A DNA stretch of 60,645 bases from an uncultured Bacillales bacterium (GTDB taxonomy: Bacteria > Bacillota_I > Bacilli_A > RF39 > UBA660), in NCBI GenBank assembly GCA_946614095.1, contig CAMOGG010000002.1:1-60645 (forward strand), written 5' to 3'. Shown here in pieces: positions 5,096 through 37,998 of this stretch (position 1 is its first letter; every line of letters starts with the position of its first letter). The notes under the pieces were generated by a model. It did not search any database, was not told the DNA's origin, and saw only the letters and a program-made list of their open reading frames with translations. The translations under genes were made by a program, and so were the position numbers.

Positions 5096-6865
5096 ATGAA
5101 AAAGAGAATTAAAGTTATTTTGACTTTAGTGATTTTGGGTTGTATGGTTTGGTTTTTAATTGTTTCTCCATTGATACAGTTTCATCGTAATGAGAAGAGT
5201 GTTGAAAAAGCAGGGAAAAGATATTTTGACTTGAATCAAAATGAGCTTCCAACTGGAGAGAGGGTTAAAACGTTGAGTTTAAAAAAACTTTATTTTGAAA
5301 AACTTTTGGAAAATGATATTTTTGCTCCTTATACTCGAAAAACTTGTTCTTTAGAAAAAAGTTGGGTTAAAGTCAAAAGAGAAGAAAATGATTATCAATA
5401 TTATGTATATTTGGATTGTGGTATCTTAAAATCTTCTGTTGATGCGAAGGGACCTGTTATTCGGTTAAAAGGTAAGGAGAAAATAACTCTAGGGGTTGGT
5501 GATCAATATGAAGATCCTGGTATTTCTAGTGTGGTTGATGATGTGGATGGAAAACTAAATACTTCCGATGTAAATATTAAAGGAAAAGTAGATACATCAA
5601 AAGTTGGGGTTTATGAAATTACTTATTCTGCTTATGATAAACTTAGTAATGCTGGAGTAGCTACTCGTACTGTTTCTGTTGTTAAAAAGGCTTATAATAC
5701 TTTTAAAAAGGATTTAGGCAAAGAAACAAATTATAAAGGTATGCCTACGAATAATTATGTAAGACTTTCTAATATGGTTTTTGCGGTTTATGGTATTGAT
5801 GAAAACAAGAATATAGTTTTAGTGGCAGATAAAGATGTTGCGAATGTCAGCTATAATAAGATTAATGATTGGTTGAAATATTACTATCAGCATTTTACTA
5901 AGAAATCAAAATCTATGATTGTTCCAAGTAAGTATTGTAATATGAAAGTTGATGAGAGTAACCTTAATACAACAGAGTGTACTTCTTATACCAAAGAGAG
6001 AAATGTTTATATTCCTTCTATTGTTGAAGTAAATAAAGCAGCGGGTGATTATGATAGCTTCATGAAACCAGTTACTATGTCTTGGCTTTCTACGAGTCAA
6101 GATTCCAAAAAAGCATATTTAACCCGTAATGTTTTTTATGGAAGTGATTATGAAAAAAGTTTTGTGGCTTATGATATAACAGAAAACTATGGTGTTCGAC
6201 CAATGCTTACTATAAAAGGTAGTACTTTAATTACTGGTGGTGATGGTAGTTATGCAAATCCATATACTTTTGGAGATTCTGAGCCTGCTAAAGGATCATC
6301 CTTATTGAATACAAGAGATACAGGAGAATATATTTCAGATGGTTCTTTCTTATGGAGAATTGTTGATGTTATGAAAGATGGTACTACGAAAGCTATTAGT
6401 GAAGAAGTTATTACTCTTGCAGAGGCAAAACAAGATTCTCTTTCTGAAAGAATTACCTATAATCCAAAAGATAAGACTAGTGTTGGTTATTATATTAATA
6501 ATAAAGTTAGTGAGTTTGTTGATACTTCTAAACTTGTTAATCATCAAATAGAAGTTCCAATTTATCAAAATAAGATTATTTATGGTGAAGAGTCTACAAC
6601 AAAAAAATATAACGTTGTTTTGTCAGCACCAAATATGTTTGAAATGTTTAGCGCAGCACCTTCTTCTACAAGTAGTTCTTATTGGTTTTTAAATACTTCT
6701 TTAGAAAATGGAGTGGGGGCGGCTTTAACTGAAATAGGTGTTCCTTATAATGATAAGATAGGTCCTTATACTACTTTATCGGTGCGTGTTGTTGGGTATT
6801 TTAAAGATAGTACAATTATTAGTACTGGAAAAGGTACTGAGAATTCTCCTTATGTTGTTAAGTAG
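5096..6865 (+). CDS. Type-A surface protein 1: TM anchor, pilin-head-like domain, DUF5011-type Ig domain, two beta-rich LWRI/GVRP-type domains
   Basis: AGGAGG RBS at 5083-5088. N-terminal TM helix. Head segment ending YYVYLDCG. GPVIRLKG...YEDPG...GVYEITYSAYD matches the DUF5011 pattern. Domain ends are GGDGSYANPYTFG and GKGTENSPYVVK. Confidence 0.75.
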   Translation: MKKRIKVILTLVILGCMVWFLIVSPLIQFHRNEKSVEKAGKRYFDLNQNELPTGERVKTLSLKKLYFEKLLENDIFAPYTRKTCSLEKSWVKVKREENDYQYYVYLDCGILKSSVDAKGPVIRLKGKEKITLGVGDQYEDPGISSVVDDVDGKLNTSDVNIKGKVDTSKVGVYEITYSAYDKLSNAGVATRTVSVVKKAYNTFKKDLGKETNYKGMPTNNYVRLSNMVFAVYGIDENKNIVLVADKDVANVSYNKINDWLKYYYQHFTKKSKSMIVPSKYCNMKVDESNLNTTECTSYTKERNVYIPSIVEVNKAAGDYDSFMKPVTMSWLSTSQDSKKAYLTRNVFYGSDYEKSFVAYDITENYGVRPMLTIKGSTLITGGDGSYANPYTFGDSEPAKGSSLLNTRDTGEYISDGSFLWRIVDVMKDGTTKAISEEVITLAEAKQDSLSERITYNPKDKTSVGYYINNKVSEFVDTSKLVNHQIEVPIYQNKIIYGEESTTKKYNVVLSAPNMFEMFSAAPSSTSSSYWFLNTSLENGVGAALTEIGVPYNDKIGPYTTLSVRVVGYFKDSTIISTGKGTENSPYVVK

Positions 6866-6873
6866 GTGTTGGT

Positions 6874-7671
6874 ATGCTTGTGAATAAAAAACATAAAGAA
6901 TTATTCGGTATTATTCTACTTCTTTTTATTGCTATTATTGCTGTTCTTTATGAAATATGTCGTCCATATTATAATAGTGTTAATCGTGTTTCTAATATTT
7001 TAGAAGAAAAGAAAAAAGATACGAAAGATTATCATACGATTGGGTGGCTTAAAGTGCAGGGAACAACTTTAGATTTACCGATTTTGACTATTAATCATAA
7101 AGATCCGCCTGTTAATAGAGAACATTTTTCTTGGGTATTAAATGAAGATGATCAATATCATAATGTTATGAATATACTAGGTCATAATATATTTAATTTA
7201 TCATCTTCTCCTAAATTACATTTGGAGCATTATCAAAGATTTGAAGATTTGTTATCTTTTGTTTATTATGATTTTGCAAAGGAGAATAAATATATTCAAT
7301 TAACTATTGATAATAAAAATTATATTTATAAAATATTTTCTGTTGGTTTTATTCCATCTTATGAAGTATCTCTTTTTCCAACTGGCGAATATTCTAGGGA
7401 GCAATTATCTAAACAAATTTCATGGTTGAAGGATATTTCCGTTTATGACTATGATTTGGATGTTCAGAATGATGATCATATTATTTCACTGGTTACTTGT
7501 ACAAGGCTATTTGGTTATAATGATATGTCGAAAGACTTTATTGTTAGTGGTAGATTGGTTCATTCTGGTGAACTTATTTCAGATTATAAAGTTACTAAAA
7601 ATAATCAATATAAAGAAATAAATAAAATATTGAAAGGTGATGGTGAGAATGAAGATGCTTCTTCAACATAA
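6874..7671 (+). CDS. Class-B-sortase-like transpeptidase 1
   Basis: N-terminal TM helix. IGWLKVQGTTLDLPIL, ILGHN (His), ISLVTCT (Cys) and SGRLV (Arg) are collinear with the S. aureus SrtB motifs. Confidence 0.75.
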   Translation: MLVNKKHKELFGIILLLFIAIIAVLYEICRPYYNSVNRVSNILEEKKKDTKDYHTIGWLKVQGTTLDLPILTINHKDPPVNREHFSWVLNEDDQYHNVMNILGHNIFNLSSSPKLHLEHYQRFEDLLSFVYYDFAKENKYIQLTIDNKNYIYKIFSVGFIPSYEVSLFPTGEYSREQLSKQISWLKDISVYDYDLDVQNDDHIISLVTCTRLFGYNDMSKDFIVSGRLVHSGELISDYKVTKNNQYKEINKILKGDGENEDASST

Positions 7672-10600
7672 AATAAAGATTTTGTTGATTGTACTTTTTG
7701 TTTTTTCAGTTTTCTTTGTTGCATCTCTTTCTTTTGACGGTAATTCTATTACTAAGAAGAAGAGTGAAAAATTAGAAGGAGAAACTGTAACAACAAGTAA
7801 AAAGGTAAAATGTGAAAATTATACTGTTCAAGAAGCAGAAGATAAGAAGAAAAGTGGTTTTGATTTTTTTGGTCGTTATGGTACGGAAGGTGAATTTTCT
7901 AAAAATGGTGATTTTACCATTTCAATTTCCCCAAGTACTTCAAAATCAAACAATCCAGTTGGTTCTGATTTTGAATTGTATGTTGAAAAAATTTCCATTG
8001 TTAGTTTGTTAGAACAAAATGATGATTTAGTAGACTCAATGGAGAAGTATACTGTATATAATTCTAAAGATTATGGACCAGATGATTATCGATTGTCTAA
8101 AAAGAAAAGTATCACGATTAGTAGATCTGAAGTAGAATCACTTGCATCTTCAGTAACAAGTGCTGATGCTGATACTGTTTTAATTACTTTGAAAGCAGTT
8201 AAGGCTAATTCTGATCCAATGTGTGAAGGAACTGTTTTTTATAATGTAGAGGTTGGTCTTGATTCTTTTTCTAGTGCTGTTTCTGAACCGATTGAAGGGG
8301 TTGAAACAGTAGGAGATTATTATATTGCTCCTGTTTCTATTGATTGTAATAATCCGAAAGATGACTTTGAACAAAGTTATTGTGTAGGAGAGAAAGGTTA
8401 CTTTAATCCTGGAACAAAAAAAACTGTAACAGTTAAAGATAAGAGTAGCGATTTAAAAAGAAATGGTGGTACTTTTAAGAATATTCGTTATGCTTTAAAA
8501 TGTGATGCTCATTCGATTGTACCAAGTAATAGTTCTATTGCGAAAGATAGTGCTAGTGAAAGTAAATACTATGTTAATGATGAAATATTAAAGGCTTCTC
8601 ATACAACTAGTGAGTCTTTTGGTAACTATACGTATCATTATGCACCAGGTTTGCCTACAGAAACGGTTCCAATTAAGGTTGATACCACCTGTACTGAAAC
8701 ATTGCATGTTCAGTATGGACCACCTGTATCTGTAAAAGCTGGAATTTGTTTTGAATATAATGTTAAAGTTACTAGTACAGTAGTTTGTAAAGCTTCTAAG
8801 GTACCTGCACCTAAGGCTGCCACTTATTGTAATCCTATTCCAAAATGTTATCATAAAACCGGTAATTGGACAGGAGCCAATGCTGGACCTAATGATTCTT
8901 TTGATATGTGTATTCAGCAATGTGATGGTGGAAAGTATTCTGACTATTGTAGTCAAAAATGTTATAGTTCTATTTATACTGTTGGAGAAAAGAGAACTTC
9001 TAGTATTCTTGATGATTATAGTGTTCAACAGATAAAATCTTATCGTAAAGATAAAAATGGTCGTCAAAGAATTACTACTAGCTCTAATGTTGATAAAGCT
9101 AATGCTTTAATTGATAGTATTAATAAATGTTTATCGTTGGAAGAGAAAAGTACTTTAAAAAATTCACATTATACAATGACTAATTATCCGAATGTTGGAA
9201 CTTCTGGTGGAATAAATTTCTATGGATGTTATTATTGGGATGAGTCTGCTAAAGAAATTAAGTGGGCTTCTGGTATTGAAGGTAATATTTTAGAAAATTC
9301 TCATGGTAAAGTTGGTAATGCAAGATATGCTCCTGGAAGATGGTATGGTGTTCATCGTAAAACTTCTAATTACGCTGGATATTCTTCAAATGATGGTTTC
9401 ATGCGTAAAGCTTTTTCATCTGGTTTATGTACTGCTTCCTGTAGATGGGATGGATGTTCTCAGACAGAATATTGGAATCCTGCTCAGGCTAAAGCAGATT
9501 ATGATGAGAATATGAAAGTCTTTAATGATGCAAAAACAGCGGCTGAGAAGGCAAGCACTTGTTCAGAGAAAACAACAGAATTTACTATGAAAGTTACGGA
9601 GTATGGTACTTATATGAAATCTGCTGATACGTTAACCTCAAAGCCTTCTGGACAAAATATTGACGAAAAAGAAAAATTATTAGGGAAAAGATATGTTAGA
9701 GATTATTCTAAGTGTTATCAAACCTCTGATATTAATAAAAATGAGATGTATCAAACGGTTTGGGGATTCCCTGGTGTTTGGCAAGATGCAAAGAGTATGA
9801 AAATTTCATTTGTACAAGTTCCTGATTCTGTTTTCATTTCTAATAAATTTTGTCTTCCGTTAGATGCTAAAACAGTTAATGAGAAATGGTGGACTTATTA
9901 CTATACTGCTCAATATGAGCATAGTACAACGAGTTTAACGTCTCAAACTTATCAAGATAAATGTATGAAAACTACAACGTGTACTAATTGGGTACATGAA
10001 AATGATATCGATTGGGATAAAGATATTACATATAATATTACAGGTTCTACTGATAATTTTGGTCATTTTGGATGGAACTTGGATGTTAGTTGTTTCTATG
10101 CATATTCTACGAATCCAACAACCGGTAAGGACTGTAAACCTTCTATTGAGTGTGATTCTTCTAGTGGATATACAGTGCGAAGTGTTGATTTATCCGATAT
10201 GTTTCCTAGTCCAGATGGTGAAACTCATTCTGCTGATACAACCGGAAGGGATACTGGATTTAACTGGACAAAGTATGCAACAAATGTTAAAAAAGATCCT
10301 AATTATGTTAGTGATCCTATTGCCTATTTGAAAGAAACTCAAAAAAATGAAATTTTATTGCGTAAACGAGGAAAATCTACTTATACGAATGAAGCAGAAT
10401 TGGATTATCGTATTTATTTATCTCGTGAGGATTTACGTAATATTAAAAAATATGTTACTAGTGATTCATTCTCTTATACGGATTATGGCTCTCGTGGTAA
10501 ATTTATTCCAAATGGAAGCGTTTTAAGCTATCAAAGTAACGTATTACGTTCTACTACTTCGAATGGACTTTCAGTATTTAATTCTGATAATATATTAGTA

Positions 10601-10675
10601 GATGAAAGTCTGTTGAAATGTAATAATGTAGATAATGGTAAGTGTGCACAATTTGTTAGTGAGGTGAAAGAATAA
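7649..10675 (+). CDS. Giant cysteine-rich secreted protein C1 (unknown family)
   Basis: Signal/TM segment KILLIVLFVFSVFFVASLS. I count 29 Cys. Paralogous to 15524-18238. The start overlaps the end of the sortase gene; ATG 7649 was chosen after the AAAGG RBS. Confidence 0.8.
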   Translation: MKMLLQHKIKILLIVLFVFSVFFVASLSFDGNSITKKKSEKLEGETVTTSKKVKCENYTVQEAEDKKKSGFDFFGRYGTEGEFSKNGDFTISISPSTSKSNNPVGSDFELYVEKISIVSLLEQNDDLVDSMEKYTVYNSKDYGPDDYRLSKKKSITISRSEVESLASSVTSADADTVLITLKAVKANSDPMCEGTVFYNVEVGLDSFSSAVSEPIEGVETVGDYYIAPVSIDCNNPKDDFEQSYCVGEKGYFNPGTKKTVTVKDKSSDLKRNGGTFKNIRYALKCDAHSIVPSNSSIAKDSASESKYYVNDEILKASHTTSESFGNYTYHYAPGLPTETVPIKVDTTCTETLHVQYGPPVSVKAGICFEYNVKVTSTVVCKASKVPAPKAATYCNPIPKCYHKTGNWTGANAGPNDSFDMCIQQCDGGKYSDYCSQKCYSSIYTVGEKRTSSILDDYSVQQIKSYRKDKNGRQRITTSSNVDKANALIDSINKCLSLEEKSTLKNSHYTMTNYPNVGTSGGINFYGCYYWDESAKEIKWASGIEGNILENSHGKVGNARYAPGRWYGVHRKTSNYAGYSSNDGFMRKAFSSGLCTASCRWDGCSQTEYWNPAQAKADYDENMKVFNDAKTAAEKASTCSEKTTEFTMKVTEYGTYMKSADTLTSKPSGQNIDEKEKLLGKRYVRDYSKCYQTSDINKNEMYQTVWGFPGVWQDAKSMKISFVQVPDSVFISNKFCLPLDAKTVNEKWWTYYYTAQYEHSTTSLTSQTYQDKCMKTTTCTNWVHENDIDWDKDITYNITGSTDNFGHFGWNLDVSCFYAYSTNPTTGKDCKPSIECDSSSGYTVRSVDLSDMFPSPDGETHSADTTGRDTGFNWTKYATNVKKDPNYVSDPIAYLKETQKNEILLRKRGKSTYTNEAELDYRIYLSREDLRNIKKYVTSDSFSYTDYGSRGKFIPNGSVLSYQSNVLRSTTSNGLSVFNSDNILVDESLLKCNNVDNGKCAQFVSEVKE

Positions 10676-10678
10676 TCT

Positions 10679-11206
10679 ATGAATAAAGGTATGTTAACAA
10701 TTGGGATTATTTTACTTTCTATTATTTCTTTGCTATTACTTAATGTTTTAAATAACTATATGACTGGTGGAGAGTTAGATTATTATCTTGTCAAAGAAAC
10801 TGCTGATGCTGCTATGTTAGATGCAGTTGATAATACATATTCTGCTGTAACTTGTGGATTGCCTCGAATTGATAAAGAAAAATTTGTGGAAAGTTTCGTT
10901 TTACGTTTTGGTAGTAGTATTGATGGCAGTAGAGGTTATGAATTGAGCTTCTATGATATTAATGAAGTACCTCCTAAAGTAAGTGTTCGAGTAGATTCAT
11001 TGACTGTCTTGTCATTTAATGTAACCGGTGGAGAGGAAAAGGATACAAAACAAGCGGCTGATATCACAACAGAATATAGTGCTATTTTAGAGAGTAATTA
11101 TATTTCAGATATTACAGTAGAAGAAGGATTAAGAAGTTCAAATCCTACTGATAAATCTTATGATATGTGTCGTCCTCTTGATGAGATTTCAAAAGAAAGT
11201 AAGTGA
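10679..11206 (+). CDS. Small N-terminally anchored protein D1 (pseudopilin-like?)
   Basis: Starts MNKGMLTIGIILLSIISLLL, identical over 20 residues to D2. GAGGTGA RBS lies inside the end of C1. Two Cys. Confidence 0.75.
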   Translation: MNKGMLTIGIILLSIISLLLLNVLNNYMTGGELDYYLVKETADAAMLDAVDNTYSAVTCGLPRIDKEKFVESFVLRFGSSIDGSRGYELSFYDINEVPPKVSVRVDSLTVLSFNVTGGEEKDTKQAADITTEYSAILESNYISDITVEEGLRSSNPTDKSYDMCRPLDEISKESK

Positions 11207-11228: not shown

Positions 11229-11313
11229 TTTTAATTATTTTTTATTTTATCTTTTAAAAAAATTGAAATTGTTGTATACTTAATAATAGTAATAATAGGG
11301 GAGTGTGATTTAT

Positions 11314-14683: not shown

Positions 14684-14700
14684 TAAAGGAGTGATATGAG

Positions 14701-18762: not shown

Positions 18763-18764
18763 AA

Positions 18765-22991: not shown

Positions 22992-23020
22992 TTGATATTT
23001 TGTAATGTATTTGGTATAAT
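22992..23020 (+). promoter_or_regulatory. Near-consensus SigA promoter for the pilin gene
   Basis: TTGATA (22992-22997), 17-nt spacer, then TGgTATAAT (TATAAT at 23015-23020). Confidence 0.7.
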
Positions 23021-23217: not shown

Positions 23218-23268
23218 TAATTTTATTTTGAATTAAAAATTATTTTATAAAAGGTGGGAGGATTTGCT

Positions 23269-25258: not shown

Positions 25259-25288
25259 TTGACAAATAATAATAATTAATATTATAAT
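25259..25288 (+). promoter_or_regulatory. Consensus SigA promoter at the head of the T4SS module
   Basis: TTGACA (25259-25264), 18-nt spacer, TATAAT (25283-25288). Confidence 0.7.
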
Positions 25289-31214: not shown

Positions 31215-33590
31215 GTGGTGGTATCGGTGGCATATCAAGCGAATGGTTCTAGGAATCAAGATGCTGAAAAGGCAAGAAATGATGCGAATAATGCAAGAAA
31301 TGTGAGTAATGCTGCTGATGTTGCCATTGCATCTAAAAATCCATATGGTGTTGCGGCTGGTTTGGCTGTTAAAGGCGCTGATGCTGCTACTGGTGGTAAG
31401 GCTTCTGAAGCTTTAGGAAAAGGTTTAACTGCTGCTAATAAAGTTTCTCCTTTGGGGAATCATGCGCAAAATTTTTCCAATCGAGCTGCTGAAAGTGGAT
31501 TAAGTGACACTGTTGGAGCAGGTAGTAGATTAGTATCGAATATGCATAATGGAAGTATTCATGACAATACTGGTGCCGGTATCTCTCCTGATAAAATGCC
31601 AAATCAAGTCAAAAATAAACAATCAGGAGGAGAACAAGAGAATAGTTCTCTTCCTTCTTCTGATGGAAAAAATCAAGTTCCTCCTAGAACTGATTCTACG
31701 GAACCTCAAAAAAAGCGTGGTGTTTTAGGAGAAAACCATGAAAGTGAAGATTCTACTTATCAGGAGGAAGAGAAAGAAACAAAAAGTAAAGGGCTTTTTG
31801 GAATTTTTTCAATTCGTTCTTTTATTGTAATGGTTACTATCATATTTCTTCCTATTTTTTTATTCTTTTTTATCATATTGTTTGTTCTCGTAAGCTCTAG
31901 TACTGTTTTGTCTGGATTTGAGGATGCATTGGGAGCTAGTGAGGCTTCTGGAGAGGAACATGGAAATGTTAATTTTAATGTTGGTTCTGCAGAGCAAAGA
32001 GAGTTTTATAATCGTGTTAATTCTGTGAAATTAAGATTACAAGCACAGGGAAAATCAGTAGATGCTTATAAAGTAGCAGCTGTTTATTATGTTATTAATG
32101 ATAATAACTCTACTATTAGTTATAATAGTATGACGGAAGATGCAATTACGGATATTGCTAATGCGATGTTTTCTGGAAATACTTATGATGAGTCTACGTT
32201 TAAAAATAATTTAGTTTCTAATATCTTTCCAACCTATGTTTCTAATCCGTCTTCATCTTATCAAACTATGGCTGATGATGTGTTTGACTATATTGAAAAA
32301 TATGAGAGTATCATTGATAAAAAGGCTATCAATAGTTATCGTACTTCTTGTTCTTCTACGGGAAGTTGTACTTATGATATTAAGGGCTATTATATTCATG
32401 GAAAAGGTAATGTTTCCGAGGCTTTACAAGTTAAAGACTTATATGTTCGCTTAATGCAATGTGGGGTTGGAAATGGTCATGATTATGGTGGAACATTTGG
32501 AAAACCAATGGATGGAGAATCTTTAGTTCCTTTTGAAAAATATGTTTTAGGAGTTGCTTATCAAGAAATTGGTCCAGATGCTCCAGCGGAAGCTATAAAA
32601 GCTCAAATGATTGCGGCTAGAAGTTATATTTTAGCAAGACATGCTGATATGGGTGGTTGGAGAACGTTGAAAGAAGAATCTGGACGTTGGGTTATTCAAG
32701 TTGCTTCTTGCACGCAAGATCAGGTGTATTGTGATCCTGATCAAGGTTGTTCTTCTAATGATGGTCAGTGGGGACAGATTCATAGTGGACAAGCTCATAA
32801 TACAGGTTTTAGCCGGGCTGCAATGGCGGAAAATTCACCATTGCGTACCTATGCTAGCCAAACTTCTGGAGAAGTATTGATTAATCAATCAGGGTATATT
32901 GTTTATACTGGTTATTTGCAAAACGAGCAAAATCAATTTATTTCTTTAGCTAAAAAAGGATTTAATTATAAACAAATATTATTACAAGTTTATAATCAGG
33001 GTAATCGTAATTATGGCGCTAGTGATATTTTAAGAACAACTTGTAATAGTAGTGGTTCAGCTTCTTGTGGAGGTGCAGTTGGGGACTTTATCAACTGGAA
33101 ACAAAAGGGAGAAACTTGGTCTAATACTCCAATGGGTAATAGCGGTCGTACAATTGGAAATATTGGTTGTTTAGTAACATCTGTTGCTATTCAAATTGCT
33201 CGTAGTGGAGTTCCTGTTAATGTAAGTGATTTCAATCCAGGAACGTTTGTGGAACAGTTGAATGCAAATGGTGGATTTGATGGATATGGTAACTTTACTT
33301 GGGCTGCTGCATCTAGAGTTGCTCCTTCGTTCCAATACCAAGATAAAATTTATGTTGCTGGAATGAGTCGAGAACAAAAACTAGCCACTATAACTGATTT
33401 GGTTAATCAGCCAAATACCTATGTTGTTGCAGAAGTAAAAGGTAATACTGGTCAACATTGGGTTGCAATTAATTCCGTTAATGGAAATTCTGTTACTATG
33501 ATGGATCCTGGTTCATCAGCAACTGATTTATGGTCAGAATATAATTGGGCTAATACCTCGACTTTGGCATATTATAAAGTAAGTTCATAA
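31215..33590 (+). CDS. Membrane-anchored cell-wall hydrolase: SpoIID-type domain + papain-like (C39-like/CHAP-type) Cys peptidase (VirB1 analogue)
   Basis: TM helix FIVMVTIIFLPIFLFFFIILFVLV. SpoIID pattern EKYVLGVAYQEIGPDAPAEAIKAQMIAARSYILARH. C-terminal IGNIGCLVTSVAI ... GQHWVAINSV provides a Cys/His pair. GTG start is uncertain by a few codons. Confidence 0.7.
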   Translation: MVVSVAYQANGSRNQDAEKARNDANNARNVSNAADVAIASKNPYGVAAGLAVKGADAATGGKASEALGKGLTAANKVSPLGNHAQNFSNRAAESGLSDTVGAGSRLVSNMHNGSIHDNTGAGISPDKMPNQVKNKQSGGEQENSSLPSSDGKNQVPPRTDSTEPQKKRGVLGENHESEDSTYQEEEKETKSKGLFGIFSIRSFIVMVTIIFLPIFLFFFIILFVLVSSSTVLSGFEDALGASEASGEEHGNVNFNVGSAEQREFYNRVNSVKLRLQAQGKSVDAYKVAAVYYVINDNNSTISYNSMTEDAITDIANAMFSGNTYDESTFKNNLVSNIFPTYVSNPSSSYQTMADDVFDYIEKYESIIDKKAINSYRTSCSSTGSCTYDIKGYYIHGKGNVSEALQVKDLYVRLMQCGVGNGHDYGGTFGKPMDGESLVPFEKYVLGVAYQEIGPDAPAEAIKAQMIAARSYILARHADMGGWRTLKEESGRWVIQVASCTQDQVYCDPDQGCSSNDGQWGQIHSGQAHNTGFSRAAMAENSPLRTYASQTSGEVLINQSGYIVYTGYLQNEQNQFISLAKKGFNYKQILLQVYNQGNRNYGASDILRTTCNSSGSASCGGAVGDFINWKQKGETWSNTPMGNSGRTIGNIGCLVTSVAIQIARSGVPVNVSDFNPGTFVEQLNANGGFDGYGNFTWAAASRVAPSFQYQDKIYVAGMSREQKLATITDLVNQPNTYVVAEVKGNTGQHWVAINSVNGNSVTMMDPGSSATDLWSEYNWANTSTLAYYKVSS

Positions 33591-33603: not shown

Positions 33604-34383
33604 ATGGGAAATAAGAAAAAGTATATTATAGCGTTTATTATTCTTGTTCTTTTTGGTGTTATTATGTTTCTCCTTTTAGGAGTAAATAATATACGAGAAA
33701 ACCAAATGAGTACTACACTGATTGTTGGTGATAATACCATTTGGCATTATTCTGAAAAAAAATGGGTACATCTTACCTCAGCAAAATCTTTTCATAATTT
33801 AGAATGGAAGCAGTATCATATTTATTTGGATAATAAAAAATATGGTGATTATTATTTATGGCATGACGATAAGTGGTATGCTTTTGATTCTCGAAAAAAT
33901 GCTGTTCCGTTAAAGGGAGAATTATTGGCTATTAAATCAAACTATGATATTCCTGTTGAGAAAGGATTGGAAGAGAATGTAGATGATAGTGAATATATTA
34001 ATCAAGTGTTAAGTGATTATAATCTTTCCTTATCTAGTCATTTTACTTCTAAATATAAAGTTCTTTTTGATTTTGATTCTGATGGAGTAGAAGAAGAGTT
34101 TTATGTGATTAGTAATGTATTTGCTTTAGATTTTCAACCTGATACGCTTTTTTCTATTGTTTTTATGGTAAAAGACGATACAATATATCCCATTTATCAA
34201 GATATTAGCTCTAACCAGTCTATGAATGGATGTAAGCCATTTTTTAAATCTTTCTTAGATTTGAATGAAGATCAGAAGTATGAATTTATTTTAAGTTGTG
34301 GTTATTATGCTAATGAAAAGCAAATCGATATGTTATATCATTTTGATCAGGAAGAGTTTAAAATTATCATTTCTAGTTCATAA
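33604..34383 (+). CDS. N-terminally anchored protein of unknown function (positional candidate for VirB8/TcpC/PrgL role)
   Basis: AAGGAG RBS. A single TM helix (YIIAFIILVLFGVIMFLLLGV) is followed by a roughly 220-aa extracytoplasmic domain. The functional assignment rests on position only. Confidence 0.35.
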   Translation: MGNKKKYIIAFIILVLFGVIMFLLLGVNNIRENQMSTTLIVGDNTIWHYSEKKWVHLTSAKSFHNLEWKQYHIYLDNKKYGDYYLWHDDKWYAFDSRKNAVPLKGELLAIKSNYDIPVEKGLEENVDDSEYINQVLSDYNLSLSSHFTSKYKVLFDFDSDGVEEEFYVISNVFALDFQPDTLFSIVFMVKDDTIYPIYQDISSNQSMNGCKPFFKSFLDLNEDQKYEFILSCGYYANEKQIDMLYHFDQEEFKIIISSS

Positions 34384-34440: not shown

Positions 34441-36756
34441 ATGAAGTTTAAATTTCGAGCAGATGCAGAAGATTTATTAATTTTTATCATGTTTGCAATA
34501 TTTCTTTTATTTATTGTTGCATTAGCAATTGCTAATATTCATACTTTTGCTGTTACTGGGCATTTTTCTGGATTAAATTTTCTTCCTGCTTTTGCTCCTG
34601 ATTGTATTTTTTCAACTATAGTATTTTATTTTGTTTCTTTGTTGGGATTATTTGCTAGTGTTAGTTCTATGTTTTTTGAACGTGAAAAAGGGTTTGGAAT
34701 TACAACAGATAAAAACGATAAAGGTTATTCTAGATGGGCAAAGGATAAAGAGATTCAAGCAGAGTTGAGTCAGATTCCTATTACAGCTGTTAATGCGAAA
34801 GAGGCGGGTGTACCACTTCTTTTAAATGATAAAGAGATGTGGGTAGATAATGGGGAATATCATTCTTTGGTTATTGGTGCTACTGGTTCTGGAAAAACTC
34901 AAACGGTTATTTTTCCAATGGTTCATAGTTTAGCAAAAGCAAAAGAGTCTATGATTATTACAGACCCTAAAGGTGAAATTTATGAAGAGACTTCTAATAT
35001 GCTTCGTGCTCGTGGATATCAAATATTACTTCTTAATTTCCGTGATCCTCAAAATGGTAATGCATGGAATCCTATGTCTTTGCCTTATAAATTATATCAA
35101 GCAGGAAATCATGACAAAGCCATTGAGTTATTAGATGACTTGGCTCTTAATATCTTATATGATGATACTAATAAAAATAATGATCCATTCTGGGAAAAGA
35201 CTTCTGCAGATTATTTTTCAGGTGTTGCTTTAGGATTATTTGAAGATGCTAAAGAAGACGAAGTTAATATTAATAGTATCTCTTTAGCAACAACTGTTGG
35301 AGAAGAAAAGTTTGGTGGTTCTACTTATATTAAAGAATACTTTGCAGCGAAGGATCCTGCTAGTGCTGCTGCTATTAATGCTTCTAGTACTATTATGGCT
35401 CCTAATGAGACAAAGGGAAGTATTTTATCTGTTTTTAAACAAAAAGTTAAATTATTTGCGTCTCGTGATAATTTGTCTGAAATGCTATCTCATTCTGATA
35501 TTGATTTAGAGAGTATTGGTGAAAAACCTACTGCGGTATTTATCGTTATTCAAGATGAGAAGAAGACATATCATTCTTTAGTTACTATTTTATTGAAACA
35601 GATTTATGAAACATTAATTAGTGTTGCTCAAAAACATGGTGGAAAGTTACCTATTCGTACAAATTTCTTATTGGATGAGTTTGCGAATATGCCACCATTA
35701 AAAGATGTTACTACTATGATAACAGCTGCTCGTTCTCGTAAAATTCGTTTTACGATGATTATTCAAAACTTTGCCCAGTTAGATGATGTATATGGTAAAG
35801 AAGAAGCGGAAACAATTCGTGGTAACTGTGGAAATATTATTTATTTGATTACAACTGAGTTAAAAGCTCTAGAAGAAATTTCTAAGATGTGTGGGGAAGT
35901 TAAATCTAAAAAGGATGATAAAACGGCTTCTACTCCTCTTGTTACTGTATCTGATTTACAGCGTATGAAGCAGTTTGAAGTTATTATTCTTCGTATGAGA
36001 AAACAACCTTTTAAGACAAAATTTACTCCTAATTATAAATTGAATTGGGGGAAGAAATATCCTCCTGCTAAATATCCAACTCGTGAAAAACAACAAGTAC
36101 ATACTTTTGATATTAAGGAGTTTGTTAAGTCTCAGAAGAAGAAAAAATTATTAGAAATGATGAATGCGGCTGATGCAAGAGATAGTGAAAATATGAGTTT
36201 ACCAATGGGTGGAAGAGGTCGTCCTTCCAATCCTTTTGCAAGTCAATTACCTCCTGAATTGGATAGTGTACGTACAGGTCGTCCTTCTTCTGCTACTTCT
36301 GATATACCTGATTTTTTAAGAAGAAAGCCTGTACAAGAAGAGAAAGATATTATTCGTACGAAACCTAGAAGTTCTATACCTGATTTTGATACCTTTAAAC
36401 GTCAGATGGAAGATGATGATTTTTCTCCAGTTCCTTCTTCTCCTGTTAAAACTTCGCCATCTAATGTGGATGATGATTTAGGATTTGATGTTGATGAATT
36501 AGTGAAGAAGATTGATGCTAAAATTGCTGAATTAGAAGCAGAGGAAAAGAAAAATCAAGCTGAAATTGAATCTAAAAATAAAAAACAAGAAGAGAGAGCT
36601 CTTCCTACTACTCCAGTGCCTGTACATAGTATTCATGATGATGTTACATCATCTCACTCACAATCAACAACTCAAAAAACAGATGTTGATATTAATTTAG
36701 AAGATGATGGGGATGACGATGATGATGACTTCTTTGATGATTTTTTTGATAATTAG
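34441..36756 (+). CDS. virD4: VirD4/TraG-family type IV coupling protein with long disordered acidic tail
   Basis: Two N-terminal TM helices. Walker A GATGSGKT, Walker B FLLDEFANMP, and IIQNFAQL. The tail ends DDGDDDDDDFFDDFFDN. Confidence 0.85.
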   Translation: MKFKFRADAEDLLIFIMFAIFLLFIVALAIANIHTFAVTGHFSGLNFLPAFAPDCIFSTIVFYFVSLLGLFASVSSMFFEREKGFGITTDKNDKGYSRWAKDKEIQAELSQIPITAVNAKEAGVPLLLNDKEMWVDNGEYHSLVIGATGSGKTQTVIFPMVHSLAKAKESMIITDPKGEIYEETSNMLRARGYQILLLNFRDPQNGNAWNPMSLPYKLYQAGNHDKAIELLDDLALNILYDDTNKNNDPFWEKTSADYFSGVALGLFEDAKEDEVNINSISLATTVGEEKFGGSTYIKEYFAAKDPASAAAINASSTIMAPNETKGSILSVFKQKVKLFASRDNLSEMLSHSDIDLESIGEKPTAVFIVIQDEKKTYHSLVTILLKQIYETLISVAQKHGGKLPIRTNFLLDEFANMPPLKDVTTMITAARSRKIRFTMIIQNFAQLDDVYGKEEAETIRGNCGNIIYLITTELKALEEISKMCGEVKSKKDDKTASTPLVTVSDLQRMKQFEVIILRMRKQPFKTKFTPNYKLNWGKKYPPAKYPTREKQQVHTFDIKEFVKSQKKKKLLEMMNAADARDSENMSLPMGGRGRPSNPFASQLPPELDSVRTGRPSSATSDIPDFLRRKPVQEEKDIIRTKPRSSIPDFDTFKRQMEDDDFSPVPSSPVKTSPSNVDDDLGFDVDELVKKIDAKIAELEAEEKKNQAEIESKNKKQEERALPTTPVPVHSIHDDVTSSHSQSTTQKTDVDINLEDDGDDDDDDFFDDFFDN

Positions 36757-36771
36757 AAAGGATGTATAGTT

Positions 36772-37998
36772 ATGAGTACAAATTTTAATATAGTAAAAAA
36801 GAAGAAAGATGATGATGAAGAAGATTTCATGGATGAAGATGAAATAGAAGAAAGTGAAAGTAAAAGTAGTGGTACTTTTAATCAAGATGCAAAAAAAAGA
36901 ATGATTCTTTTTATGGGAATATTATTAGGTGGTTTACTTTTATTATTCTTAGTCCTTTATATTGTATCATTATTTTCTCATTCTACTTATCAGTATGAAG
37001 ATATCGAAAATGTTTTAAAGAATGCAGCAATTGCTTATTTTAAAGAAAACGATAGTTATCTACCTGTTAATGATGGAGATATTGTAGAAGTAGATTCTTC
37101 TAATTTAGTTGCAACTGGTAAAATGCGTGATTTATCCGAATATACTCCTGATGGTGTATTATGTTCTGCTACTGTTCAAGTAGAAAAATCTGGTACACAA
37201 TATTTATATACTCCATATTTAAATTGTGGTGATCAGTATACGACAATGGATTTTTCTAAAAAACTTACTCAGGATAGCAATAGTATCGTTACTGAAGGAT
37301 ATGGTCTTTATTCTATGAATGGTGAATATGTTTTTCGGGGAGAGAATGTTAATAATTATGTTCAATTAGGAGATCAATTGTGGCGTATTGTCAAAATTAG
37401 TTCTAATAATAATGTTGTTTTGATTCATAATACAGGAATAACATATGAAATACAGCCATGGGATGATCGTTGGAATGAAAGTACTAAGTATTCTAGTGGA
37501 TTTAATCAATATAAAAATAGTAGAATCTACGAGTATTTATTGAATGCTTATCAATCTCCATCTGAAAATGCATCAAAATTATTACTTTCAGATGAAGATA
37601 AGGCCAAAATTGTTTCTTATAATCTTTGCATTGGTAAACGTTCTGCAAATAGTGAAGGATTTCAAAATAAGGAAGAGTGTGCTGAAGTATTACCAGACCA
37701 AAAGTATGGATTATTGACATTATCTGACTATATGGCTGCTAGTGTTGATCCTAATTGTAAAAATGCAAATAGTCCATCTTGTCTAAACTATAACTATTTA
37801 GTTACAAAATTTGATTGGTGGTTAGCTACTGCTAGTAAAGATGATAATACGAAAGCTTTTTTGGTTGATTATGGAGGAAAGGTTTCTTTAACAGAGGCTA
37901 ATCATTTCTCTATTGTTCGTCCTGTTGTTTATTTAAATAGTAGAATATTGTATAAGAGTGGAAGTGGAACATTAGAAGATCCTTATATATTAAAATAG
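36772..37998 (+). CDS. Type-A surface protein 3 (short paralog: acidic N-tail, TM, pilin-head-like domain, one LWRI/VRP-type domain)
   Basis: Head segment ...YLYTPYLNCG, then NNYVQLGDQLWRIVK, FSIVRPVVYLN and the end GSGTLEDPYILK. These are the same modules as in A1/A2. Confidence 0.7.
   Translation: MSTNFNIVKKKKDDDEEDFMDEDEIEESESKSSGTFNQDAKKRMILFMGILLGGLLLLFLVLYIVSLFSHSTYQYEDIENVLKNAAIAYFKENDSYLPVNDGDIVEVDSSNLVATGKMRDLSEYTPDGVLCSATVQVEKSGTQYLYTPYLNCGDQYTTMDFSKKLTQDSNSIVTEGYGLYSMNGEYVFRGENVNNYVQLGDQLWRIVKISSNNNVVLIHNTGITYEIQPWDDRWNESTKYSSGFNQYKNSRIYEYLLNAYQSPSENASKLLLSDEDKAKIVSYNLCIGKRSANSEGFQNKEECAEVLPDQKYGLLTLSDYMAASVDPNCKNANSPSCLNYNYLVTKFDWWLATASKDDNTKAFLVDYGGKVSLTEANHFSIVRPVVYLNSRILYKSGSGTLEDPYILK

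Follow-up and report, generated by a model that had tools for sequence, protein, structure and literature searches.

The locus at positions 5096-37998 of the 60,645-nucleotide stretch analysed here (the window) raises the question of whether a pilus-like module joined to a relaxase-less T4SS is a mobile element, the wreck of one, or a resident machine of its host. On the best reading of our results it is neither a mobile element nor the wreck of one, but a core trait shared by the uncultured gut order RF39 and the lineages close to it.

Layout of the locus

The ORF check returned 27 ORFs at 5096-37998, every one on the + strand, where neighbours overlap by up to 40 bases or lie up to 98 bases apart; a preliminary description had placed 27 co-oriented ORFs between two terminators, and both its coordinates and the hairpin folds were confirmed. 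The two bracketing hairpins (4531-4567 and 37999-38029) escaped a simple terminator scan because their stems are AT-rich. Family calls, graded against the Pfam gathering score (NCBIfam models were also run), identified U32 peptidases, dGTPase and GreA on the left and rhodanese, DedA/VTT, RmuC, sigma-70, HtpG, phosphoketolase and IscS on the right, so that both flanks, as described before, consist of core genes. Boundaries and predicted promoters are:

4531-4567, +: intrinsic terminator after greA, upstream boundary (fold -23.3 kcal/mol, z -7.8, then a T-run)
22992-23020, +: predicted promoter-like site TTGATA-17-TATAAT with TG, before the pilin gene (consensus scan)
25259-25288, +: predicted promoter with perfect sigma-70-type consensus TTGACA-18-TATAAT (12/12 matches), before the T4SS half
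37999-38029, +: intrinsic terminator, downstream boundary (hairpin and T9, -11.3 kcal/mol, z -2.6)

Surface-protein and sortase cassettes

4577-5014, +: 145-aa lipoprotein (lipobox LLTGC, from sequence)
5096-6865, +: A1 (cassette 1), N-terminally anchored surface protein (Pfam Bact_surface_Ig-like, 67 bits)
6874-7671, +: class-B-sortase-like protein 1 (cassette 1; Pfam Sortase 25.3 bits, just below the cut-off of 26.6)
7637-10675, +: C1 (cassette 1), 1012-aa Cys-rich protein, secreted or anchored (29 Cys)
10679-11206, +: D1 (cassette 1), DUF5411 protein with pilin-like N-terminal hydrophobic helix (Pfam DUF5411, 130 bits)
11305-12867, +: 520-aa polytopic membrane protein with extracellular DUF4352-like domain (weak DUF4352 match)
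12878-14683, +: A2 (cassette 2), surface protein, Ig-like and DUF6273 (Pfam, synteny)
14701-15546, +: class-B-sortase-like protein 2 (cassette 2; Pfam Sortase 30.6 bits against 26.6, above the cut-off)
15515-18238, +: C2 (cassette 2), 907-aa Cys-rich surface protein (30% identity to C1, conserved cysteines)
18238-18762, +: D2 (cassette 2), DUF5411 protein (Pfam, 145 bits)
36772-37998, +: A3, variable surface protein with DUF6273-like domain (weak, 20.4 bits against a cut-off of 23.5)

The two cassettes are old paralogues, with identities of 53% (A), 50% (Srt), 30% (C) and 69% (D); 21 cysteines are conserved across the family of C proteins. Synteny identifies cassette 2 as the one common to all relatives and the 520-aa polytopic protein, in which six hydrophobic peaks, two of them overlapping, indicate about 5-6 TM segments, as the product of the gene that opens the locus in most of them; the 145-aa lipoprotein heads the locus in some, with homologues before the polytopic protein in L005 and L090. 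Bact_surface_Ig-like reaches the gathering score in both A1 and A2, as does DUF5411 in D1 and D2, and DUF6273 scores 31.7 bits in A2 (cut-off 23.5). C1 matched nothing in Pfam or NCBIfam and has no known domain, and no homologue of D1 was found on plasmids. The earlier sortase calls stand for the second copy and fall just short for the first, which keeps His, Cys (VTCTR) and Arg and reaches 41.5 bits, far under the cut-off, with NCBIfam srtB.

Pilus-like half

18723-19574, +: CpaB/RcpC-like SAF-domain protein with N-terminal anchor (Pfam, NCBIfam, hhalign)
19593-21263, +: secretion-superfamily ATPase, FlaI/CpaF type (T2SSE, 96 bits)
21279-22181, +: platform-like polytopic protein 1, 'TadB-like' (hhalign 92% to a pBMB67 305-aa protein)
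22181-22984, +: platform-like polytopic protein 2, 'TadC-like' (hhalign 92% to a pBMB67 244-aa protein, 75% to a Peribacillus homologue)
23056-23217, +: 53-aa pilin-like protein (invariant N-terminus MKAATGELNLTVITL in an alignment of 25 homologues)
23254-23721, +: pseudopilin-like protein 1, N-terminal helix and globular domain (paralogue of 2)
23732-24217, +: pseudopilin-like protein 2 (paralogue of 1)
24238-25254, +: 338-aa cytoplasmic two-domain protein, 'TadZ-like' (AF2 model, pLDDT 76.9)

Calling this half a canonical Tad gene set proved an overstatement: the ATPase and, below threshold, the CpaB-like protein stood, while TadB/TadC (T2SSF), the 53-aa 'Flp' pilin, the two pseudopilins and TadZ received no profile support in the window proteins themselves. 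The putative Tad assignment draws its support from the ATPase, from the CpaB-like protein and from the context of the genes. The ATPase translation holds all four motifs quoted previously (AGETGSGKT, ITIEDTLEL, ILLSEVR and STIHA), ends in a variable, low-complexity tail of about 200 aa, and scores 73 bits with FlaI, 69.5 with CpaF and 56.7 with VirB11 among PDB proteins. The CpaB-like protein remains below the gathering score for RcpC/CpaB (26.9 vs 28.8 bits) and SAF (18.5 vs 21), and below the NCBIfam CpaB cut-off (33 vs 71 bits); hhalign relates it to the pBMB67 SAF protein at 99.6% and to Ralstonia CpaB at 64%.

Platform-like protein 1, which is 76-94% identical in most relatives and 63-73% in the most distant contigs, has no T2SSF match of its own, whereas a distant relative (P0378) reaches 24.8 bits with T2SSF; both platform-like proteins are tied to that family only by a transitive, near-threshold link. 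Protein 2 has the TM topology of protein 1. The 53-aa protein matched no Pfam or NCBIfam family and lacks the Flp G/XXXXEY motif. The pseudopilin-like proteins share 40% identity (hhalign 100%) and a conserved N-terminus, GG-x-VN...NYTKAF(R/K)MKN. The model of the 338-aa protein combines a flavodoxin/receiver-like N-domain with a SIMIBI (ParA/MinD/HypB-like) P-loop fold with degenerate Walker A (EHAGATT); Foldseek matched HypB, UreG, ParA, FlhF and BcsQ, with TadZ absent from the top 50, a match to the general SIMIBI P-loop fold alone.

T4SS half

25314-25619, +: VirB2-like T4SS pilin 1, two-TM hairpin (T4SS_pilin PF18895 at family level)
25705-26217, +: VirB2-like T4SS pilin 2, paralogue of pilin 1 (family sequences, PF18895)
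26242-28497, +: extended VirB6/TrbL-like channel protein (TrbL_4 36 bits, reaching the gathering score)
28514-28834, +: small two-TM protein in PrgI/VirB3 position (hhalign 46%, E 2e-4, to pBMB67 PrgI)
28743-29411, +: separate 222-aa N-terminal (TraC-like) part of VirB4 (NCBIfam Mbov_0397 VirB4 model positions 92-276)
29408-31198, +: VirB4 ATPase (AAA_10, P-loop_TraG and DUF87 at gathering score)
31215-33590, +: predicted membrane-anchored cell-wall hydrolase, SpoIID and C-terminal Cys/His peptidase-like region (SpoIID 43 bits)
33604-34383, +: 259-aa N-terminally anchored protein in VirB8 position (position alone)
34441-36756, +: VirD4-type coupling protein with acidic C-terminal tail (T4SS-DNA_transf 192 bits)

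Here the profile searches bore out most of the proposed families: T2SSE (in the ATPase above), TrbL_4, the VirB4 families, SpoIID and T4SS-DNA_transf were recovered, T2SSF was not, and CpaB/SAF stayed sub-threshold. The two VirB2-like genes hold at the family level, T4SS_pilin PF18895 being matched by 41 of 46 family members (best E 1.3e-6); pilin 1 by itself gave no match at E<=0.01, and pilin 2, for which we adopted the start at 25705 in place of the mechanical ORF start at 25501, runs from a signal peptide through a variable region to a conserved hairpin. The VirB6/TrbL-like protein also matches Mbov_0396 weakly, and the VirB4-adjacent place of the PrgI/VirB3-position protein is conserved. 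The reported split of VirB4 is genuine and not a pseudogene, because it is conserved in all relatives and plasmids; its N-part is PF26593 TraC-like in relatives (hhalign 97% to a pBMB67 227-aa protein). In a distant clade the peptidase of the hydrolase is encoded separately as an NlpC/P60 gene. The 259-aa protein resembles pLS20 gene 53 weakly (hhalign 10.8%, E 0.003).

The locus is chromosomally fixed

Profile searches found no relaxase or integrase family among the scanned ORFs of the window, tblastn with MobP2 and MobP3 relaxase queries found nothing, and, as had been stated, neither a tRNA nor flanking direct or att repeats (except the cassette duplication) occur in the 60 kb; Rfam gave no match either. 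In none of the relatives examined is a relaxase or integrase encoded within 10 kb of VirD4.

Among genomes of uncultured gut Bacilli, at least 282 at species level have the locus, and 80 species-representative ones were kept. It also occurs on about 45 metagenome contigs; the metagenomes bearing it are many and come from different hosts. L038 is Ca. Faecimonas intestinavium, of the GTDB genus CAG-877 in order RF39 (PMC8035907). The shared order is greA, the locus, then rhodanese-dedA-rmuC: dGTPase-GreA lies to the left in relatives with ATPases 72-94% identical, and rhodanese-DedA-RmuC-DUF3603 to the right in most of the 80 genomes, while in a deeper clade the locus is followed by NAD-salvage genes and rlmN, likewise core genes. 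The chromosomally fixed apparatus proposed earlier is hence strongly supported.

The conjugative-element gene set would also fit an ICE, ordinary or decayed, that had its relaxase, integrase and att sites just beyond the window or had recently lost them; moreover, the window is approximately an entire contig (the longest has 60,937 bases), so that one contig of the genome was seen, and a tyrosine recombinase directly follows VirD4 in three IMG/VR contigs. However, insertion context and gene order are shared across those at least 282 genomes, all genes are intact, core genes stand on both sides, and GC content (0.27 to 0.35 within the locus, 0.25 to 0.34 in the flanks) shows no step at either boundary. 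The recombinase was rejected as the locus's own, since it belongs to an adjacent prophage with a CI/LexA-like repressor, replication genes and an HNH endonuclease. We therefore regard a decayed ICE, the alternative named previously, as effectively excluded, and an ordinary one as very unlikely.

Motors are conserved and adhesins diverge

VirB4 is conserved above the neighbouring rmuC and the adhesins are hypervariable: mean pairwise protein distances are 0.139 for VirB4, 0.199 for RmuC, 0.268 for VirD4 and 0.54-0.65 for A3, VirB6 and the hydrolase. Identities are 75-93% for VirB4 in relatives, 64-87% for VirD4 across the 80 genomes and 35-57% for A3. The motors, at least as conserved as neighbouring housekeeping genes, thus show strong purifying selection, and the surface proteins fast divergence. 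In favour of vertical descent, the distances of VirD4 and RmuC correlate (r = 0.65) about as well as those of two flanking core genes (0.60). The correlations are only moderate, however (VirB4 vs RmuC, r = 0.47), which, like the separability of the halves described below, runs counter to our best explanation.

It is improbable that two independent machines merely adjoin, a Tad-like adhesive pilus with its cassettes for gut attachment and a separate T4SS. The predicted promoters before the pilin gene and the T4SS half would suit such an arrangement, and three more distant contigs carry the T4SS half with no pilus-like half directly upstream, so the two halves can separate. Nevertheless, every RF39-type locus seen has the two halves side by side in one orientation, the terminator scan found no strong terminator between them, and their homologues are linked in the transfer regions of two Bacillus conjugative plasmid families.

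Relation to known systems

The combination had been presented as lacking a described monoderm parallel; in fact, conjugative plasmids of Bacillus, both of the pBMB67/pAW63/pXO2 type and of the pLS20 type, group the same gene set in their transfer regions, namely genes for a CpaB-like protein, a FlaI/CpaF-like ATPase and two polytopic proteins, for small pilins, VirB6 and PrgI, and for VirB4 in two parts, a hydrolase and VirD4, and so already join a FlaI/CpaF-type ATPase module to an MPF_FATA T4SS. Unlike the RF39 locus, they additionally carry MobP2 or MobP3 relaxases. Pairwise and profile matches make eight locus proteins detectably homologous to pBMB67 counterparts (the CpaB-like protein, the ATPase, both polytopic proteins, the VirB4 N-part, VirB4, VirD4 and PrgI). 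By tblastn, the ATPase matches pLS20-family plasmids at 36% identity (pLS20 gene 37) and VirB4 aligns along 98% of its length with pBMB67-type plasmids of B. thuringiensis; the CpaB-like protein was matched on 362 plasmids, 355 of them from Bacillus. Published work already describes the 'VirB11' homologue that pLS20 and pAW63 carry (PMC8557374, PMC9673590). The closest precedent for the RF39 locus is that of Patescibacteria, whose chromosomal MPF_FATA T4SS are mostly relaxase-less, have VirB2-like pilins and are essential for epibiotic growth (PMC12102498, PMC12857230).

Possible function

Taken together, the locus probably descends from a Gram-positive conjugative mating-pair-formation (Mpf) region and is probably still functional, inherited vertically at a fixed chromosomal site and exapted for contact-dependent transfer. 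The variable Ig-like/DUF6273 and Cys-rich proteins, which the sortase-like enzyme may process or anchor, would bind a partner cell; the ATPase and both platform-like proteins, together with the 53-aa pilin and the pseudopilin-like pair, would form a short fibre or piston across the wall; the SpoIID/peptidase hydrolase would open the peptidoglycan; and VirB4, VirB6, PrgI and the two VirB2-like pilins would form a channel, through which a cytoplasmic substrate recruited by VirD4 would be fed outwards.

A less likely alternative is a dedicated chromosomal DNA-exchange system, in which the fixed T4SS and VirD4 export (or with a partner import) chromosomal or mobilisable DNA between RF39 cells, set off by a relaxase from another locus or by some unconventional initiator; Mycoplasma chromosomal transfer via ICE-encoded channels and the archaeal Ced/Ted systems are parallels. 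Each characterised homologue is a DNA conjugation system, and VirD4 keeps TrwB_AAD_bind (88 bits) beside T4SS-DNA_transf and TraG-D_C (89 bits); both points run counter to exaptation. The Mycoplasma-ICE VirB4 model gives VirB4 its best score (351 bits; CD1110 family, 178 bits), most genomes have rmuC 1 kb downstream, and recombination could benefit small-genome lineages. However, in the 80 genomes neither the operon nor the 10 kb around it contain an oriT-like feature, relaxase or DNA-processing gene, rmuC is a common housekeeping gene past the terminator, DNA importers such as ComB and Ced have no VirD4, and no obvious donor benefit would explain order-wide purifying selection.

Whatever its cargo, the machine does not transfer itself. 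For the exapted machine we tentatively prefer a role in exchanging macromolecules with a partner cell, as has been suggested for the T4SS of Patescibacteria, although no candidate effector was identified, which again counts against this explanation; relaxase-in-trans or unconventional chromosomal DNA exchange comes second. RF39, an order of uncultured, small-genome gut bacteria, thus carries a conserved chromosomal form of the Bacillus plasmid mating machine, which, being kept without local DNA-processing genes, has probably taken on a new role in contact with other cells.

Results

Layout and gene content of the locus

The window has a G+C content of about 29% and carries nearly all of its genes on the + strand. 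ORF coordinates and hairpin folds confirmed the arrangement proposed in the preliminary description, 27 co-oriented ORFs between strong terminators; together with a small lipoprotein gene these ORFs make up the content between the two hairpins, and their junctions range from a 40-base overlap to a 98-base gap. A consensus terminator scan overlooked both bracketing terminators. Both flanks consist of housekeeping genes.

Features of the window
4531-4567, terminator of greA (fold -23.3 kcal/mol, z -7.8)
5096-37998, + strand, the 27 ORFs: a pilus-like half, a T4SS half and the surface protein A3
5096-11206 and 12878-18762, + strand, cassettes 1 and 2, each with genes for a surface protein (A), a sortase-like protein, a Cys-rich protein (C) and a DUF5411 protein (D)
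20670-21263, + strand, tail of the ATPase
21279-22181 and 22181-22984, + strand, polytopic, platform-like proteins 1 ('TadB-like') and 2 ('TadC-like')
24238-25254, + strand, Z338, a 338-aa 'TadZ-like' protein
33604-34383, + strand, h259, a 259-aa anchored protein in the VirB8 position
36400-36756, + strand, C-terminus of VirD4
37999-38029, second bracketing terminator (fold -11.3 kcal/mol, z -2.6)

Promoter-like sites precede the pilin gene, the T4SS half (a 12/12 consensus match) and the VirD4 gene, which suggests sub-operons. The ATPase motifs cited earlier were all found in the translation, and most of the earlier family calls reached the curated cut-offs when the ORFs were run against Pfam: Bact_surface_Ig-like (A1, A2), DUF6273 (A2), Sortase (second copy), DUF5411 (D1, D2), T2SSE, TrbL_4, AAA_10 / P-loop_TraG (VirB4), SpoIID, and T4SS-DNA_transf with TraG-D_C. 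Four calls fell below cut-off, namely DUF6273 in A3, Sortase in its first copy, RcpC/CpaB and SAF.

The T4SS half

VirB4 matches AAA_10, P-loop_TraG and DUF87 in Pfam, and VirB4_plasma (351 bits) and a CD1110 family (178 bits) in NCBIfam; a 222-aa ORF encodes its TraC-like N-terminal part. VirD4 matches T4SS-DNA_transf (192 bits), TraG-D_C and TrwB_AAD_bind in Pfam, while the VirB6/TrbL protein (TrbL_4, 36 bits) and the hydrolase (SpoIID, 43 bits) both exceed the cut-offs. For the PrgI/VirB3-like protein the evidence consists solely of an hhalign match at 46%, and h259 reaches just 10.8% in hhalign against pLS20 gene 53. The two small hairpin proteins have two TM helices each; Pfam T4SS_pilin (PF18895) is matched by 41 of 46 homologues (best E 1.3e-6), and the window's first copy, taken alone, does not match it at E<=0.01. 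By these matches the two genes belong, at the family level, to the VirB2-like T4SS pilins, and the locus has the VirB4, VirD4 and VirB6/PrgI/hydrolase components by which an MPF_FATA-type conjugative T4SS is recognized.

The VirD4 C-terminus forms a strongly acidic tail, DDGDDDDDDFFDDFFDN, from which DDDDDDFF served as one of six peptide patterns in a genome scan. A substrate or a partner protein may dock there.

Relation of the pilus-like half to Tad pili

The first half had been described as the canonical Tad/Flp pilus gene set. This description is overstated: the ATPase and the CpaB-like protein have direct support, at sub-threshold scores, and neither the Flp motif, a peptidase within the window nor a direct T2SSF match was found.

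Of the solved structures, archaeal FlaI (73 bits) and that of Caulobacter CpaF (69.5 bits) score highest with the ATPase, which aligns with both over a longer stretch than with VirB11 (56.7 bits); in NCBIfam its matches to VirB11 (111 bits), the TadA-family conjugal-transfer-associated model (103 bits) and FlaI (96 bits) all lie far under the cut-offs. Its catalytic part is 85-97% identical across the metagenome loci kept. The tail, about 200 aa of low-complexity sequence rich in Pro, Val, Ala and Ser, varies widely in length, and relatives total 449 to 593 aa. The CpaB-like protein scores 26.9 bits against 28.8 for RcpC and 33 bits against 71 for TIGR03177, and matches Ralstonia CpaB at 64% in hhalign; in that unannotated, high-GC tad locus only the CpaB comparison is usable, the 'TadB' ORF evidently being in the wrong frame.

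The two polytopic proteins have the topology expected for half-size platform proteins. T2SSF was unmatched in Pfam by 19 TadB/TadC-like proteins, plasmid homologues included, even at E<=10, the profiles of platform-like proteins 1 and 2 did not match each other significantly (E 0.026), and those of platform-like protein 1 and Z338 gave chance matches only against PDB sequences. A search of 1.84 billion representative proteins returned only 240 clusters of the platform family, mostly fragments; one distant full-length relative, P0378 (profile E 1.9e-8), matches T2SSF with an E of 2.3e-5 and 24.8 bits against a cut-off of 25.2. No bona fide TadB/TadC was found in the Rhizobium, Acidovorax and Peribacillus plasmid regions. 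An AF2 model of platform-like protein 1 (pLDDT 48.7), built on an alignment limited to 89-95% identical sequences, was discarded as unusable.

The 53-aa pilin is highly conserved and has an invariant N-terminus, MKAATGELNLTVITL. The Flp processing motif is absent from it: in place of G/XXXXEY its N-terminus reads MKAATG-ELNLTV, with no EY. The two pseudopilin-like proteins are paralogues sharing a conserved N-terminus. The AF2 model of Z338 (pLDDT 76.9) combines an alpha/beta N-domain with a SIMIBI P-loop fold and a degenerate Walker A; it matches HypB, UreG, ParA, FlhF and BcsQ, no TadZ structure is among its top 50 matches, and profile comparisons gave no TadZ sequence match. None of the scanned window ORFs encodes an A24 prepilin peptidase. 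At 48141-51377 lies the gene for an unusually large, 1078-aa pilin-like protein with a canonical type IV pilin N-terminus (MKRIRNSKG/FTLVELL) and a Listeria/Bacteroides repeat. Because a GFTLVE-type pilin is encoded there, a PilD/ComC-type prepilin peptidase is likely to be encoded elsewhere in the genome.

Taken as a whole, this half resembles a Tad/Flp system in its ATPase nearest to FlaI and CpaF, CpaB/RcpC-like protein, two half-size polytopic proteins, pilin of about 50 aa, two pseudopilin-like proteins and ParA-fold protein, and in a gene order like cpaB-tadA-tadB-tadC-flp-tadE-tadF-tadZ. It differs in that its platform proteins lack a T2SSF match, its pilin has another N-terminus, the window holds no prepilin peptidase and every score in this comparison lies under the family cut-off. 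Several family assignments in this half come from gene context alone. Hence, on the basis of the ATPase, the CpaB-like protein and the gene context, we refer to a putative 'Tad/archaeal-type pilus-like' module, and not to a member of the Tad family.

Surface cassettes

The two cassettes are old paralogues whose proteins are 30-69% identical. They lie in tandem about 7.6-7.9 kb apart, with 71-81% nucleotide identity in conserved stretches; most relatives have a single cassette, and a second one upstream of the polytopic gene also occurs in two further loci (L121, L122). The sortase domain is weak, with the catalytic His, Cys and Arg residues present, and the C proteins share 21 conserved cysteines. 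In no window protein does a C-terminal LPXTG-type sorting motif precede a TM segment and a charged tail, and by this measure the cassettes do not appear to form a sortase-assembled pilus or a sortase-anchored adhesin system. Kinship of the C proteins to plasmid adhesins was rejected, as comparison with the 851-aa protein of pBMB67, the thioester adhesin of pLS20 and the isopeptide protein of Peribacillus revealed no similarity. DUF5411 has no homologue on plasmids.

Kinship with conjugative plasmids of Bacillus

A tblastn search of 72,556 plasmids with the ATPase and VirB4 placed the former nearest to the B. subtilis pLS20 family (36% identity, annotated 'CpaF/VirB11 family') and the latter nearest to B. 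thuringiensis plasmids of the pBMB67/pAW63/pXO2 type. The CpaB-like protein matched 362 plasmids, 355 of them from Bacillus. In pBMB67 the annotated region comprises a MobP3 relaxase, VirD4, a small protein, TrbL, PrgI, a 227-aa protein and VirB4, and beyond VirB4 a SAF-domain protein, an AAA ATPase, a T2SS/T4P/T4SS ATPase, two hypothetical membrane proteins and small proteins. That of pLS20 starts with an adhesin, a small protein, the CpaF/VirB11 ATPase, two membrane proteins and several small proteins, and continues with VirD4, VirB6, DUF5592, a 192-aa protein, VirB4, the hydrolase and a MobP2 relaxase. The whole combination thus lies inside the transfer regions of both plasmid families, and eight window proteins could be matched to pBMB67 counterparts by BLAST or profile comparison.

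Window proteins matched to pBMB67
CpaB-like protein: hhalign 99.6%
ATPase: BLAST
Polytopic protein 1: hhalign 92%
Polytopic protein 2: hhalign 92%
VirB4 N-part: hhalign 97%
VirB4: BLAST
VirD4: BLAST
PrgI: hhalign 46%

The locus therefore is not a hybrid of two unrelated machines, since both plasmid families carry the whole combination, and the earlier claim of a hybrid new to monoderms has to be abandoned. Its predicted proteins include the linked SAF/CpaB-like protein, ATPase, two polytopic proteins and split-VirB4 T4SS of the pBMB67/pAW63/pXO2-type Mpf region, and mark it as kin to a type of mating-pair-formation region that is known, if little described. A 'VirB11' homologue has already been noted in pLS20 and pAW63 (PMC8557374, PMC9673590), the unusual one of pLS20 in PMC8557374.

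With pBMB67, pAW63, pXO2 and pHT73 the locus shares the SAF/CpaB-like protein, ATPase, two polytopic and pilin-like proteins, VirD4, TrbL/VirB6, PrgI, a separate VirB4 N-part of about 225 aa and VirB4. In contrast, the pBMB67-type plasmid encodes a MobP3 relaxase, functions for replication and partition, and a ParA-like AAA ATPase whose P-loop is better preserved, its T4SS half lies upstream of the ATPase half, and it lacks the A/sortase/Cys-rich/DUF5411 cassettes, whereas the window locus is chromosomal, without a relaxase and fixed across its lineage. With pLS20 the shared order runs from the adhesin, small anchored protein, 'VirB11' ATPase (gene 37, 36% identical) and two membrane proteins to the small proteins, VirB6, DUF5592/PrgI-like protein, VirB4 N-part, VirB4 and hydrolase. 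This plasmid differs in its MobP2 relaxase with auxiliary proteins, quorum-sensing control and thioester adhesin, and in having VirD4 before VirB6; the similarity of its platform-like and small proteins to those of the window is at or below detection.

Fixation in RF39 and absence of linked mobility genes

Gut metagenomes contain more than 7,000 close homologues of the ATPase, the named ones labelled 'MAG: ... [Bacilli bacterium]'. Around two homologues (94% and 72% identical) the genes from the polytopic 520-aa protein through VirB4 keep the same order, with a single A/Srt/C/D cassette in each case and dGTPase-GreA directly upstream in one. When genomes representing the GTDB species, one for each, were scanned for VirD4, at least 282 relatives emerged, and the 80 loci kept are all from MAGs of uncultured gut bacteria, variously labelled Bacilli, Mollicutes, Tenericutes or Erysipelotrichaceae. 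Nearly all of these loci have, in order, Z338, two pilins, VirB6, PrgI, VirB4 N-part, VirB4, hydrolase, h259, VirD4 and A3, followed in most by rhodanese, DedA, RmuC and two small genes; in a deeper clade including Ca. Onthousia the genes downstream are nicotinamidase, NAPRTase, NUDIX, NadE and RlmN, that is, core genes. An ATPase scan of metagenomes added about 45 long contigs, sampled from the rumen and from the guts of humans, sloths and rodents, that carry a complete left half in the same order, about half with GreA directly upstream. One of the loci (L038) belongs to Ca. Faecimonas intestinavium (genus GTDB CAG-877, family CAG-611, order RF39); a sister species in this genus has a 1.4-Mb genome with 28% G+C (PMC8035907).

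Identity of the platform-like proteins to those of the window is 76-94% for most relatives and falls to 63-73% for the most distant contigs. Pairwise protein distances differed between components, and those of VirD4 and RmuC correlated (r = 0.65) to a degree similar to that seen for two flanking core genes (r = 0.60).

Mean pairwise protein distances across about 70 species
VirB4: 0.139
RmuC: 0.199
VirD4: 0.268
A3: 0.54
Hydrolase: 0.63
VirB6: 0.65

This pattern is one of vertical inheritance, in which the motor is under strong purifying selection and the cell-surface proteins diversify. The view of a chromosomally fixed apparatus is upheld by the same site in at least 282 species-level genomes and about 45 metagenome contigs. 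Its alternative, a decayed ICE, is excluded for practical purposes by the shared site, the distance correlation and this signature of vertical inheritance and purifying selection.

Profile, tblastn and repeat scans bore out the reported lack of relaxase, integrase, tRNA and att repeats in the 60 kb. No relaxase family was found in the locus or flank ORFs with Pfam and NCBIfam, MobP2 and MobP3 relaxases were unmatched by tblastn in the window and 86 loci, and the 60 kb contain no integrase, tRNA, att-like flanking repeat or Rfam family. The features of a conjugative element, a linked relaxase and an integrase, att site, tRNA target or variable presence, were not observed.

Three IMG/VR contigs encode a VirB4 67-69% identical to that of the window and a tyrosine recombinase after VirD4. 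We considered these viral contigs as candidates for an integrase-linked mobile relative and rejected them, the recombinases belonging to prophages integrated next to VirD4. In the IMG/VR loci L171-L175 the prophage follows VirD4 directly and carries, besides its tyrosine integrase, genes for a CI/LexA-like repressor, replication and an HNH endonuclease; an unrelated gene precedes the T4SS half, and the ATPase/pilin module is not directly upstream. Hence, the two halves are separable in more distant lineages.

Several relatives show local variation. In the deeper clade the hydrolase is split into SpoIID and a separate NlpC/P60 protein (5078-9920 in L079; also L080, L082 and L086), and two extra small genes lie between VirB4 and VirD4. 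A rumen contig (L095, 13230-14702, minus strand) has a 491-aa membrane-protein-like ORF between the second platform-like and the pilin genes; no transposase or integrase family was found in a Pfam scan including this ORF. Four loci (L007, L058, L065, L067) are titled 'uncultured Muribaculaceae bacterium' or 'Acidaminococcus fermentans' despite a low-GC Bacilli locus and are probably mislabelled or contaminated bins. A mixed Pfam scan yielded a serpin (E 1.4e-34) among the unmatched flanking ORFs, tentatively traced to a 408-aa ORF upstream of the locus (L101, 18-1241). Positions 41010-43670 of the window encode an 886-aa sigma-70 protein (regions 2-4 at residues 514-736) with an N-terminal extension of roughly 400-500 aa and a C-terminal one of about 140 aa; relatives keep 2.5-3.5 kb at this position, and all alignments cover less than 40%.

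Discussion

Among curated models, the window VirB4 scores best with that of the Mycoplasma ICE T4SS (Mbov_0396/Mbov_0397), at 351 bits against an equivalog cut-off of 590, and VirB6 matches it weakly. The Mycoplasma system stems from a relative whose genome is likewise low in GC and reduced, and is not known to have a classical relaxase; these ICEs are mobile elements with a DDE recombinase and are not known to have an ATPase/pilin module. The archaeal Ced/Ted systems are chromosomally fixed, relaxase-less conjugation derivatives with VirB2-like pilins that serve their host. NCBIfam CedD is a weak match of the window VirB4, but the similarity is at the superfamily level only, and as far as we know Ced/Ted systems lack VirD4 and import DNA rather than export it.

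The closest parallel in biology is the T4SS of Patescibacteria (Saccharibacteria), a monoderm MPF_FATA-type system that is chromosomal, lineage-wide in reduced genomes and mostly relaxase-less, encodes PF18895/VirB2-like pilin paralogues and has presumably been co-opted for a role other than conjugation (PMC12102498, PMC12857230). The RF39 locus fits the definition of such a host-encoded T4SS (PMC12102498), being chromosomal, lineage-wide and mostly relaxase-less. The two differ in phylum, in that no CpaB/ATPase/platform module or sortase-adhesin cassette is reported from the Patescibacteria locus, and in that the essentiality of the latter has been shown experimentally. Thus, the nearest relatives are the Bacillus plasmid Mpf regions by sequence and the chromosomal T4SS of Patescibacteria by biology. 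A literature search found no paper joining RF39 with T4SS, VirB4, pilus or conjugation.

Since the machine does not mobilise itself, its benefit must fall to the organism. We propose that contact would be made via the variable Ig-like/DUF6273 and Cys-rich proteins, which the sortase-like enzymes may process, though the window holds no LPXTG-type substrate. The ATPase, platform-like, pilin and pseudopilin-like proteins would assemble a fibre across the wall, in which the SpoIID/peptidase hydrolase would open a hole; VirB4, VirB6, PrgI and the two VirB2-like pilins would form the channel, and VirD4 would pick a cytoplasmic substrate for export. By analogy with the proposal for the Patescibacteria T4SS (PMC12102498, PMC12857230), the cargo might be protein or another macromolecule exchanged with a partner cell, a reading in which our confidence is just short of even. 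A host-controlled exchange of DNA, with a relaxase in trans or an unconventional initiator, comes second and is somewhat less likely. Other roles make up the rest of our expectation.

Going further than partner-cell exchange, we speculate, while thinking it rather unlikely, that RF39 depends on physical contact with a bacterial or host cell, with the machine as its essential conduit and a second, independent Saccharibacteria-like case; that one monoderm apparatus joins an archaeal/Tad-type fibre motor to a VirB2-pilin T4SS; and that the pLS20/pXO2-type 'VirB11' modules are pilus-assembly modules. If true, this last role would contradict the textbook view of Gram-positive T4SSs without VirB11 and pili.

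According to a 2025 T4SS review (PMC12857230), nearly all Gram-positive systems move DNA only, these systems 'universally lack VirB11 homologs', and Patescibacteria are the sole known source of VirB2-like pilins. The locus touches all three of these points: it is a monoderm T4SS without a relaxase that belongs to its host throughout an order of ordinary Bacillota, it is linked both physically and in evolution to a FlaI/CpaF-type ATPase module, and it is equipped with two PF18895 pilins. What is new is a conjugative apparatus domesticated by its host across a whole order of such bacteria, with a FlaI/CpaF-type module and VirB2-like pilins, the parts that current reviews deny to Gram-positive systems. 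The role of the homologous ATPase, platform-like and pilin genes of pLS20 and pAW63 in mating is approachable now in cultured Bacillus. The locus offers a concrete molecular handle on the lifestyle of RF39, an order with a reduced genome that is prevalent in the gut of humans and animals and has resisted cultivation.
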